Of a DNA stretch of 64,000 bases, positions 25,992 to 28,737 are shown piece by piece. The DNA is taken from the NCBI GenBank assembly GCA_020848545.1, contig JADLHZ010000148.1:492-64491 (forward strand), read 5' to 3'. Under the pieces are notes generated by a model, which saw nothing but the letters and a program-made list of their open reading frames with translations, had not been told where the DNA came from and searched no databases. The DNA comes from Deltaproteobacteria bacterium. Its GTDB lineage: Bacteria; Myxococcota; JADLHZ01. Position 1 is the stretch's first letter. Each line of letters begins with the position of its first letter. The position numbers and the translations under genes were made by a program.

Positions 25992-26537
25992 TCAGCTCTC
26001 GCGGGAGTGCAGCTCATTCATCGCCGTCGCGAAGCGCATGATGCCCGCTTGCTCCTTGCCGTCCTTGGCGACGGACGCGGCGACGCGCAGATCCTTTTCC
26101 AGGTCGCGCATGTTCTCCGCCGTCTCAGGGTCGACGCCAGCTTGCGCGAGCGCTGCGCGGATCCTCGGCACGTAGGCCGCGGCGAGCGCGAGCATGCGAT
26201 CCGCGGCCTCGCTGAGCGCCTGCGGATCGTCGAGCTCGCGCGCCGCCCGGGTCTCTTGCGAGAACTTACGCATCTGCAGCGCGACGCCCATCCGGCCCTG
26301 AGTCGCCGTCGGATCGAGGGTGAGGTCGAAGCCCGTCGGCGGCGGTGCGTCGGCGGGACGGCTGAGCAGGAGCGTGACGTCGATCGCTTGTTTGTCTGCG
26401 ACCTTCGTCGCGTCGACACCGTCGCTCACGGAGGCGCGGGCGGCCCTCGTCGCTTGCGTGGCGGGTGCGCGCACGGCGCCGGCGGCGTCCGGTGGCGGGG
26501 CGACCTGGCCTGGCGGTGGCGATCCGATCTTCATCAT
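25992..26537 (-). CDS. Hypothetical protein (181 aa) with a Pro/Ala-rich N-terminus
   Basis: Start 'MMKIGSPPPG' overlaps the chaperone stop (TCAT at 26534-26537). No motif recognised. Confidence 0.55.
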   Translation of the reverse strand: MMKIGSPPPGQVAPPPDAAGAVRAPATQATRAARASVSDGVDATKVADKQAIDVTLLLSRPADAPPPTGFDLTLDPTATQGRMGVALQMRKFSQETRAARELDDPQALSEAADRMLALAAAYVPRIRAALAQAGVDPETAENMRDLEKDLRVAASVAKDGKEQAGIMRFATAMNELHSRES

Positions 26538-27055
26538 TTCACCCCCGCGCTCTCGAAGGTGCCGGCTGTCGCTTGTGCGGTCCGCGCGAGCTGCATCAGC
26601 GCCTCGGCGCGCTGCAAGGTCACGAGGCTCATCGGGTCCGTTTGGCCGCGCAGTTGCTCGAGCGCCATCTCGAGCTCGAGCCACGCTGCGGTCGTGCGCC
26701 CTTGGTTGAGCATGATCTCGGCGCGGTAAACGCGGCTGACGGCGTCCCCGGGCTCGATACGCAGCGTCAGGTTGTAGAGCAGCTCCGCCAGCGGAAACAC
26801 CTTGAGGCGGTGCGCGCAAACAGCGAGCCCGCGCCAGTGCTTCGGATCGTCGTGGTCGAGCACAGCGAGCAGACAGTACAGCTTGCCCGCGGCGACCGGC
26901 TGGTTGGCGGCGAGCTGGCGGCAGGCGCTCACGTACATCGCTTCGAGCTGCGCGTGATCGATCCCGAGCAGATCGTGCGCGTGCAGCAGATCGGCGTCCG
27001 GTCCGAAGAGCAGAGCCTTCATCTGATTGAGCGCGTTCTGGCGGTCCTGTTCCAT
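26534..27055 (-). CDS. Type III secretion class II chaperone-like TPR protein (SycD/LcrH/IpgC family-like)
   Basis: 'LLGIDHAQLEAMYVSACRQL...AGKLYCLLAVLDHDDPKHWRGLAVCAH...YRAEIMLNQG' parallels the SycD segment '...LEQLYSLAFNQYQSGKYEDAHKVFQALCVLDHYDSRFFLGLGACRQ...'. Compared from memory, not searched. Confidence 0.6.
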   Translation of the reverse strand: MEQDRQNALNQMKALLFGPDADLLHAHDLLGIDHAQLEAMYVSACRQLAANQPVAAGKLYCLLAVLDHDDPKHWRGLAVCAHRLKVFPLAELLYNLTLRIEPGDAVSRVYRAEIMLNQGRTTAAWLELEMALEQLRGQTDPMSLVTLQRAEALMQLARTAQATAGTFESAGVK

Positions 27056-27063
27056 CGCTGCCC

Positions 27064-28737
27064 CTACATCATCGCTTGCGCGCGGAGATACTGGCCGAAC
27101 GACTCGGCGGCTTTTGCGACGTTCTCGCTGATCCGGCCGGCGCGATCTTGCGCGTCTTCGATCTCGTCCTTGGTGTCCTTCTCCTTGACGCGCGCCTCTT
27201 CGATCTTGTTGAGGAGCGCCTTGATCATCACCTCGACCTCGGCCAAGCGCGCGCGCACCAGGTCGAGCTCCAGATTCACGCGCGCCATGTCCTTGGCATA
27301 TTGCGCGTCGAGCACCTTGTCGACGGCGTTGACCAGCGCGCAGGCGGCGTTGAAGATCGCGATGCCTTGCATGACCGCGCCGAGCACGCCGCTGGCGTCG
27401 CCGGTGAAGACCGCGACGGCGATCGCGACGGCGATCGCGGCGACGGCGACGCCGATCTGATAGTAGGTGCTGGTCGCGACCTCTTCGTTGAACCAGCGCT
27501 CCGAGCCCTCGAGCCGCTGCGCGCTGTCTTTATCGACGGCGCCGGTGGCCGCCTTGGTGCCGTCGAGGACCGCCTGGGTGTGATCGGGGTGGACGCCGAG
27601 AATGGTGGCGATCGTCACCGTCGCCGCGTAAGCCCCCTTGACCAAAAAGTCGGTGTTGATACCGACGAGCTTGGTGATGCGGGCGAAGACGAGTGCCGCC
27701 ACGATCACCGTCGCCGCCGCGATCACGATAGGCGTCAACGCGATCGACTTCACCTTCGAAATGATGTCGGTCACCGACTTGAACGCGCCCGTGACCTTGC
27801 CGAGGAAGCTGTTGTTGCGCTTGTTCTTGGCGCGCTCGGCCGCCTCATACGCCGACTTCATCTTCGCGTGCGTGCCCGTGATCTGGCCGAGGAGGCCATC
27901 GAGACGCACGAGGAGCGCCTTCTTCTCGTCCTTGAGCGCGCTGAGCTCGCGGTGCAACGCTTCGATGTCTTGGCCGGTGTCGCCCTGCAGCAGCGCGGCG
28001 CTCTTGGCGATGATGAACTCGCAGCTCGCTTCTAGGAGCATGAGCGCGTTGTGCGTGATCGTCGCTTCGCCTGCCCGCGGCGGTCCCGTCGTCGACGCCG
28101 CGGCGCCCGGAGGGTCCGAGAGCAAGCGCTGCGCCGGCGCCACGAAAGCGCGGTCGAGCCGGTCGACGACCGCGGCGACCTCGGACGAGAGCGCCTGCCG
28201 CTCTGGGCTCAGCGTCTGTCGCAGCGACGCGCTTTGGCCCGACGACAGATCGCCGATCAAGTCGTCGAAGAGCGTGTCGAGCTGCTCGGCGGCGTCGGGG
28301 CCGAGCTCGCTGGCGAGCCAGGATTGGTCCGGGTTCGCGCGGAGCTCGTCGGCGCGATCCTTGATCGCAGCGACGCCGCCGTCTTCACCGAGCAGATCGA
28401 CGAAGTCTGCGATCGTCTCGAGCGCTTGCCTGGTGAGCGCCTTCACCTCGCCGTCCTTGAGGGCGGTCTGCGGCACCGCGAGCGTCGGCGCGCCGAGGCG
28501 GTTTTGTACTGGATTTTTCGGGGTGCCGGCGCGCGCGACGAAGGCGTCGCTGGTGCGTGCTTTGGCGATGCTCGGATCGAGCGCCTTCGCCGGTCCCGCG
28601 CCGATCTTCGGCAGCGGGGCGTCGCCGAGCGCGTGCGCCGGAGTCGCCGTCGCAGACTCCCCTCGAGGGCCTGACGCGCGCGGCGCCGTCGATCCCTTGG
28701 TCGAGCCCAGCGGCGGGCTTGCGGTCGGTGCCGCCAT
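27064..28737 (-). CDS. Coiled-coil membrane protein with translocator-like architecture (YopB/IpaB/SipB-like)
   Basis: SD 'AAGGGAG' lies 7 nt before ATG 28737; the ORF-track start at 28788 is TTG. It has a central coiled coil, two hydrophobic hairpin regions ('IALTPIVIAAATVIVAALVFARI' and 'YYQIGVAVAAIAVAIAVAVFTG...AVMQGIAIFNAACALVNAV') and a C-terminal coiled coil. It sits 8 nt upstream of the chaperone gene. Confidence 0.5.
   Translation of the reverse strand: MAAPTASPPLGSTKGSTAPRASGPRGESATATPAHALGDAPLPKIGAGPAKALDPSIAKARTSDAFVARAGTPKNPVQNRLGAPTLAVPQTALKDGEVKALTRQALETIADFVDLLGEDGGVAAIKDRADELRANPDQSWLASELGPDAAEQLDTLFDDLIGDLSSGQSASLRQTLSPERQALSSEVAAVVDRLDRAFVAPAQRLLSDPPGAAASTTGPPRAGEATITHNALMLLEASCEFIIAKSAALLQGDTGQDIEALHRELSALKDEKKALLVRLDGLLGQITGTHAKMKSAYEAAERAKNKRNNSFLGKVTGAFKSVTDIISKVKSIALTPIVIAAATVIVAALVFARITKLVGINTDFLVKGAYAATVTIATILGVHPDHTQAVLDGTKAATGAVDKDSAQRLEGSERWFNEEVATSTYYQIGVAVAAIAVAIAVAVFTGDASGVLGAVMQGIAIFNAACALVNAVDKVLDAQYAKDMARVNLELDLVRARLAEVEVMIKALLNKIEEARVKEKDTKDEIEDAQDRAGRISENVAKAAESFGQYLRAQAMM

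Follow-up and report, generated by a model that had tools for sequence, protein, structure and literature searches.

A DNA stretch of 64,000 nucleotides from a Deltaproteobacteria bacterium (GTDB lineage Bacteria; Myxococcota; JADLHZ01; assembly GCA_020848545.1, contig JADLHZ010000148.1), called the window below, carries two adjoining minus-strand genes that encode a 557-aa and a 173-aa protein. We find that this pair is best described as a chaperone-cargo module of translocon design. It is situated outside any type III secretion system (T3SS) locus seen, and its family is very rare, the genomes concerned carrying several paralogs each. The 173-aa protein (26534..27055, minus strand) is an all-helical tetratricopeptide repeat (TPR) protein and a divergent class II (SycD/LcrH/PcrH-type) chaperone, and the 557-aa protein (27064..28737, minus strand) is translocator-like and the candidate cargo. 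Both genes lie where a preliminary description of this DNA, made without database searches, had placed them, as judged from open reading frames and codon bias (GC content at third and second codon positions, GC3 and GC2, of 0.88 and 0.47 for the 557-aa gene and 0.86 and 0.41 for the 173-aa gene). Our favoured explanation, comprising the chaperone and a translocator-like, exported cargo, is given a probability of roughly 0.55 as a whole. The relation between chaperone and cargo is well supported, and the model apart from export by a T3SS is likely. The least certain step is export by way of a T3SS-type apparatus whose genes would lie in another part of the genome, a hypothesis to which we assign somewhat less than even odds.

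The relationship of the 173-aa protein was assessed by profile, PDB sequence and fold searches. The NCBIfam model TIGR02552 (LcrH_SycD) was matched with an E-value of 5.7e-14 (52.0 bits, profile positions 7-132 of 136) and the SctY chaperone model with 2.4e-6, whereas generic Pfam TPR models reached only about 1e-3; a better fit to generic TPR families, which the preliminary description had named as part of what would refute its proposal, was not observed. In a phmmer search of the PDB, the top four matches were SycD (two variants), AcrH and PcrH. The AlphaFold2 (AF2) single-sequence model has nine helices and a mean predicted local distance difference test score (pLDDT) of 75.8. Foldseek searches with this small, all-helical model gave a fold nearest to the SycD/PcrH/IpgC type: the best eight matches were all PcrH, SycD or AcrH (E 3e-5 to 1.3e-4; target-normalised TM-score 0.74-0.83), and Scc3 and IpgC followed lower in the list among designed and generic TPR proteins. 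A profile made from six members of the chaperone's own subfamily found, as its best natural end-to-end matches in the PDB, PcrH (1.1e-17), AcrH (4.9e-17), SycD (9.3e-17) and IpgC (1.9e-13). Consistent with the SycD/LcrH/IpgC pattern that had been noticed by eye, the protein aligns collinearly with LcrH, AcrH, Photobacterium SycD and IpgC, with reference sequences drawn from annotated plasmids, and keeps the motifs LE..Y..A, VLDH.D, GL..C, A...Y and AE..L.

Because three independent tests, by profile, PDB sequence and fold, agree, the 173-aa protein is closest to the class II T3SS chaperones (SycD/LcrH, PcrH, AcrH, IpgC, SicA, CesD; TIGR02552), and it is well supported that it is a divergent relative of these and not a generic TPR protein. 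Like them, it falls in a size range of about 150-180 aa, is all-helical with three TPR-like repeats, and its gene adjoins that of a large protein bearing two hydrophobic regions. It differs from them in sharing only 14-23% identity, in the position of its gene outside a T3SS locus and after the putative cargo, and in having paralogs that form a small, expanded set. Searches for homologs by word index, run with the 173-aa and the 557-aa protein, returned near-identical copies only, and a scan of metagenome contigs with a chaperone alignment gave no match.

The strongest new evidence is the recurrent pairing of the two genes. An exhaustive HMMER scan of 1.84 billion representative proteins returned only 26 relatives of the 557-aa protein, about 15 of them full length. 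They align over the whole length and share the conserved blocks W..DRA..L.ANP and LEASLEYFI..GRLLKGD.GKDLD, the hydrophobic regions and a C-terminal LR.QLAEVE.EIK...NKAAESY; all are annotated as hypothetical. Most members come from two metagenome-assembled genomes (MAGs), GCA_034680565.1 with at least five paralogs (P0004, P0006, P0009, P0010 and P0015) and an NCBI 'Deltaproteobacteria bacterium' with IT381 locus tags, which has at least six; the other sources are metagenome contigs. A metagenome contig scan with a cargo alignment gave no match, and the only match of a genome-contig scan, from Chitinophagaceae, fell on a transmembrane (TM) segment and was rejected as spurious.

Nine independent loci of the family could be compared, and in four of them a family member adjoins a SycD-like TPR gene, in both gene orders. 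At locus L001, a homolog of the 173-aa protein is encoded 8 nt after P0003, which at 34% identity is the cargo's closest relative. The counterparts in the IT381 MAG have adjacent locus tags (05595 and 05600), and the chaperone there is 52% identical to that of the window. At L013, a 178-aa TPR gene (LcrH_SycD E 7e-20) ends 3 nt before P0009. At L011, four SycD-like TPR genes lie among and upstream of two large proteins, one of which is P0015, and the nearest ends 88 nt before P0015. LcrH_SycD is the best match of all four (E 1.5e-17, 4.2e-14, 8.2e-26 and 7.2e-23), which also match one or more of the SicA, SscA, SscB and SctY models. These paralogous chaperones of L011 and L013 reach 52-90 bits, all under the TIGR02552 cutoff. 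The window chaperone is homologous to the paired TPR proteins at the other loci (phmmer E 1e-25 to 6e-7).

The pairing is therefore real: four independent loci, drawn from three genomes or more, show it, and both their chaperones and their cargos are homologous. A generic TPR protein that happens to lie beside an unrelated hypothetical membrane protein would be conceivable in such genomes, where TPR proteins are abundant, and weak generic TPR matches in Pfam were indeed obtained. This explanation is effectively refuted by the recurrence; the tight spacing of 8 nt in the window, 8 nt in L001 and 3 nt in L013 also speaks against it. In the window, the 173-aa gene adjoins that of a putative translocator, a protein with translocator layout.

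The preliminary description had ascribed to the 557-aa protein the layout of a major translocator, with two hydrophobic hairpins about 70 aa apart, and the layout was recovered by hydropathy analysis and AF2 prediction. Residues 1-93 are predicted to be disordered (pLDDT <50), are rich in Pro, Ser and Thr and carry no signal-peptide-like hydrophobic stretch. A long helix or coiled coil follows at 223-329 in the AF2 model. The hydropathy scan places two hydrophobic blocks or hairpins at 328-382 and 423-472, with the first TM segment ending near 356 and the second starting near 425, so that about 69 aa lie between them. The C-terminal helix or coiled coil spans 451-556, of which 473-556 follow the second hairpin as coiled coil. 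The identical scan reproduces the known TM regions of real translocators (YopB 162-208/221-246, EspD 171-214/228-250, IpaB 305-354/395-430), and minor translocators show one hydrophobic block. IpaB, with 580 aa, has almost the same size and TM positions as the 557-aa protein. The order of elements is thus that of the SctE major translocators (IpaB/SipB; YopB/PopB/AopB/EspD/SseC, PF04888): no Sec signal, a disordered N-terminus with a short Pro/Leu motif in the candidate chaperone-binding region, a coiled coil, two hydrophobic regions, a C-terminal amphipathic coiled coil, and an adjacent class II-type chaperone gene.

The short N-terminal motif is PTLAVP at residues 84-89. The region around L86 is conserved: most relatives carry F..Y.LP.S at this site, and L86 is nearly invariant across the family. 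The pattern [PV]xLxxP occurs once, at residues 50-65, in YopB, YopD, AopB, AopD, SctE and IpaB; PdpSctB and IpaC are exceptions among the fetched translocators.

Homology of the cargo to translocators was examined by profile comparisons, and the signals obtained are consistent and weak. Three of 15 relatives match PF04888 (SseC/YopB/EspD) below threshold, among them P0008 (E 8.4e-5, 22.7 bits, profile positions 39-300 of 312) and P0005 (E 2.8e-3, 17.7 bits, 35-304 of 312), against a cutoff of 30.2 bits. Both of these alignments run from the coiled coil through the TM blocks to the C-terminus. When the cargo-family alignment (A1) was compared by hhalign with YopB/AopB/SctE, with or without EspD, a score of 44.6 and a probability of 62% were obtained. 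All 22 controls scored lower, the two reversed profiles at 28.8 and 31.7 and the 20 block shuffles at no more than 33.4. With IpaB alone the score was 40.1 (41% probability); both results lie above all controls and are not decisive. In the IpaB alignment, family positions 294-343 are paired with IpaB 291-334, so that in both the coiled coil meets the first TM region at this place. YopD-type proteins, IpaC, EspB and EspA gave less than 1%. It is plausible from these comparisons that the 557-aa protein works like a major translocator, and its membership in the major-translocator family is unproven.

A number of observations weigh against the favoured explanation, and some of them also bear on a second possibility, namely that the 557-aa protein is not exported at all. 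It would then be a resident coiled-coil protein of the inner membrane with two to four TM helices, such as an envelope or cytoskeletal scaffold, with the TPR protein as its assembly factor or adaptor, and the likeness to translocators would be convergent. In searches of Pfam, NCBIfam and the PDB, the 557-aa protein gave nothing beyond coiled-coil noise, and no translocator model was matched at an E-value of 1 or better. Its best Pfam and NCBIfam matches are generic coiled-coil families such as EzrA, SMC and HAUS, and no NCBIfam translocon model was among the matches. The profile comparison with both families that the preliminary description had suggested thus held for the chaperone, if below the curated cutoff, and failed for the 557-aa protein, which has no significant match to a major-translocator model. 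A hidden Markov model built from A1 did not detect YopB, IpaB, AopB, SctE or EspD-type sequences, and an A1 profile search of the PDB gave coiled-coil noise only. AF2 modelled the 557-aa protein poorly (pLDDT 55), and Foldseek searches with this model were uninformative, yielding only generic coiled coils of chemoreceptor-like and SMC-like type. The PTLAVP match to [PV]xLxxP would be expected by chance in 19-27% of shuffles, and P0003, the closest homolog, has not retained it. The neighbourhood is rich in TPR proteins, including one giant of 3515 aa.

On the other side, the partner is specifically similar to class II T3SS chaperones. An N-terminus that is long, disordered and rich in Ser, Thr and Pro is a typical feature of secreted substrates, and the hhalign scores lie above all controls, with alignments collinear with YopB and IpaB. 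In addition, a 302-aa protein with a single hydrophobic segment follows P0015 at L011, as a minor translocator would be expected to; its layout is that of a minor translocator, and it occurs at L011 only. We therefore regard a resident membrane protein as improbable.

The remaining points against the favoured explanation concern the family and its genomic setting. The 173-aa protein scores 52.0 bits, under the curated TIGR02552 equivalog cutoff of 104.8 bits, for which reason we call it a divergent relative rather than a certified member of the class. Five of the nine loci have no adjacent chaperone gene, and no recognisable homolog of a minor translocator (SctB) or tip protein was found in the operon of the window. 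There are at least six paralogs per MAG, unlike a classical translocon. The cargo family also differs from SctE translocators in having no significant profile match for the window protein and no T3SS locus, and in being confined to a few uncultured high-GC 'Deltaproteobacteria' MAGs. At none of the nine family loci was a T3SS apparatus gene found within 10 kb. The same holds for the 64-kb window, where Pfam scans covered the likely genes picked by GC3 codon bias and a few open reading frames were left unscanned; the window locus does not encode a T3SS as far as these scans reach, and the earlier claim that the pair is an orphan is borne out. The only secretion-related genes found in the window are those for a TolC-like outer-membrane factor and an HlyD-family adaptor (parts of a type I secretion system or an efflux system; 37956-41536, minus strand) and for a PilD-type prepilin peptidase (52725-53564, minus strand).

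These observations can also be read as a genuine chaperone-cargo pair that works without any T3SS. The chaperone would keep a hydrophobic toxin or pore-former soluble, and the cargo would leave the cell by a Tad/Kil-like pilus machine, a type I or type VI secretion system, outer-membrane vesicles or lysis, the fold having been recruited outside injectisomes. Besides the missing apparatus genes and the chaperones' scores under the curated T3SS-chaperone cutoff, the several paralogs per genome would fit, as they resemble a toxin arsenal, and so would the JGI label of two chaperone relatives as TadD-like ('TadD'). On the other hand, sequence and fold searches alike give the chaperone no closest natural relatives other than T3SS translocator chaperones, and the weak profile signals of the cargo favour major translocators and not other families of pore-formers. 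Furthermore, we know of no case in which a class II-type chaperone serves another secretion system, though no exhaustive search for one was made, and we count this against the possibility. Taken together, export by such a route seems unlikely, though it is a stronger contender than a resident membrane protein.

If the favoured explanation holds, the class II-type chaperone would bind the 557-aa protein, encoded just upstream, in the cytoplasm of the producer, and its concave groove may hold the short N-terminal motif around L86. Binding would keep both hydrophobic hairpins out of the membrane of the producer itself. The cargo would then be exported without a Sec signal and insert its hairpins into a target membrane, where the flanking coiled coils could drive oligomerisation into a pore. 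The cargo would thus be an exported alpha-helical membrane-inserting protein, built like the SctE major translocators (IpaB/SipB, YopB, EspD). The pore-forming function is predicted from the layout and the weak homology. That each genome has several paralogs suggests that they form an arsenal of pore-formers or effectors and not a single dedicated translocon.

The order of the two genes was compared with that in known systems. The preliminary description stressed that the order is inverted with respect to injectisome loci, in which the chaperone precedes the translocator. The canonical chaperone-first order is indeed found in pCD1, in Aeromonas and Photobacterium plasmids and in pCP301, and the order in the window is inverted. 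This is not a trait of the family, since in L011 and L013 the chaperone comes before the cargo. It is not unprecedented either, because the E. coli locus of enterocyte effacement (LEE) has espA-espD-espB-cesD2-escF in LEE4 and cesD in LEE2, about 20 kb off, so that both a translocator-then-chaperone order and a distant TPR chaperone occur in bona fide systems. In contrast to the window module, the LEE genes lie inside a complete injectisome island.

The T3SS of Myxococcales lack secretin, needle, tip and translocon, and fast-evolving translocon homologs could have escaped detection there (Abby and Rocha, PMC3459982). The needle-less myxobacterial T3SS* (mxan_2434-2464), which works with the Kil Tad-like pilus and is described as devoid of secretin, needle and translocon, is required for prey lysis, and its effectors are unknown (Herrou et al., PMC12075869). 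The absence of needle and translocon mentioned in the preliminary description is confirmed by these papers (PMC3459982, PMC12075869). A pore-former with its own chaperone and a gene at another site would fit into this gap. The window resembles myxobacteria in its GC content of 67%, its several Ser/Thr kinases and its giant TPR proteins; any link between the window and T3SS* is conjectural. In a bolder version of the favoured explanation, a needle-less, myxobacterial-type T3SS would have the cargo family, together with its SycD-like chaperones, as the missing substrates that breach membranes. Their genes would lie apart from those of the apparatus and have expanded into a set of paralogs, an arsenal with which bacterial prey is perforated or lysed. 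We consider this version rather unlikely. If it were true, translocon-type pore-formers would be used against bacteria, predating the needle or independent of it.

Class II TPR chaperones, like two-hairpin translocators, are seen as integral to injectisome loci aimed at eukaryotic cells. Here, in uncultured bacteria of high GC content that are deltaproteobacterial or Myxococcota-like, a module of this design occurs at scattered sites of the genome and has multiplied into paralogs. Should the cargo prove to be exported by a T3SS, the family would offer concrete candidates for substrates of needle-less T3SS-like systems and for the passage of effectors across the prey membrane, an open question in myxobacterial predation (PMC12075869). 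Should export not depend on a T3SS, the module would be a case in which the class II chaperone fold has been taken up, outside type III secretion, for the handling of pore-forming proteins.

The two genes belong to a minus-strand series that begins with a secreted beta-propeller of the tachylectin/DUF4394-like type (28795..29589, minus strand; 264 aa with a signal peptide; Pfam DUF4394, PQQ_2 and Tachylectin) and continues with the 557-aa gene, the 173-aa gene, a 181-aa gene without family assignment (25992..26537, minus strand; GC3 about 0.85 over 25992-26525) and a TPR-rich giant of 3515 aa (15322..25869, minus strand; a single open reading frame with GC3 0.88, matching only TPR_8 and TPR_19 in Pfam). 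Codon bias is typical of real genes, with GC3 of 0.85-0.91 in four of the genes and GC2 of 0.41-0.55 across all five. The successive gaps are 57 nt between propeller and 557-aa gene, 8 nt between the 557-aa and 173-aa genes, a 4-nt ATGA overlap between the 173-aa and 181-aa genes, and 122 nt before the giant. Given the 8-nt spacing and the 4-nt overlap, the 557-, 173- and 181-aa genes are almost certainly co-translated from a single transcript.

A metagenome contig of the same species (L006, 99% identical) has the same gene order as the window. The call of the 181-aa gene is identical to a database protein, and on L006 its start lies 4 nt inside the chaperone stop. The 181-aa protein has a Pro-rich N-terminus and a helical C-terminal half, with no TM or hydrophobic segment. 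It gave no match in Pfam or NCBIfam, and a PDB search returned only designed helical repeat proteins. Neither this protein nor the 3515-aa giant has a homolog in the other family loci. The beta-propeller gene recurs in L006 only, whose place is taken by unrelated genes in L001, and it probably falls outside the conserved module.

Several further features of the related loci were noted. L011 (4606-16964; GCA_034680565.1, JAXOUH010015185.1) is a translocon-like cluster with genes for a 384-aa protein, the four SycD-like TPR proteins, a 567-aa coiled-coil protein with one TM segment, P0015, the 302-aa single-TM protein and a 1324-aa protein. The C-terminus of the 384-aa protein (LSEMGEMESLRLQMAMDRLSKLMSTISNLLKKQSDTQQTMTQNIK) resembles, by eye, the C-terminal helix of needle, filament or tip proteins; searches of Pfam and the PDB gave no confirmation, and the PDB searches with the 384-aa and 302-aa proteins were uninformative. 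L013 encodes a 1183-aa homolog of the 384-aa protein (E 6e-9). L013 (3281-9997) contains two more pairs of a TPR gene and a large unannotated gene, a 205-aa TPR gene before a 476-aa gene and the 1183-aa gene before a 140-aa TPR gene. The best match of the 205-aa and 140-aa TPR proteins is the SctY model (E 1.3e-4 and 1.2e-6), and chaperone-cargo pairing may be a wider habit of this genome. At L012, an AraC-type regulator (HTH_18; 9087-9887) lies immediately upstream of P0010, which may be a coincidence. In Shigella and Salmonella, AraC-type activators (MxiE, InvF) act together with a class II chaperone.

Downstream of the operon, beyond the 3515-aa gene, the window carries a tRNA-Cys gene (8141-8212, plus strand), a DUF222/HNH endonuclease gene (8901-10451, minus strand) and, in the same stretch, two tyrosine-recombinase genes (10274-11965 and 11962-13089, minus strand). 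An att-like repeat of the tRNA-Cys 3' end was sought downstream with a genomic island in mind, and none was found. GC content is lowered to 0.63-0.66 over 8141-13089, which may represent an element integrated at tRNA-Cys. A DUF222 (HNH-associated) gene also lies beside P0004 at L002 (2931-4091), the DUF222 gene of the window being 16 kb from the module, and L002 encodes two large TPR proteins of 1044 aa and more than 765 aa.

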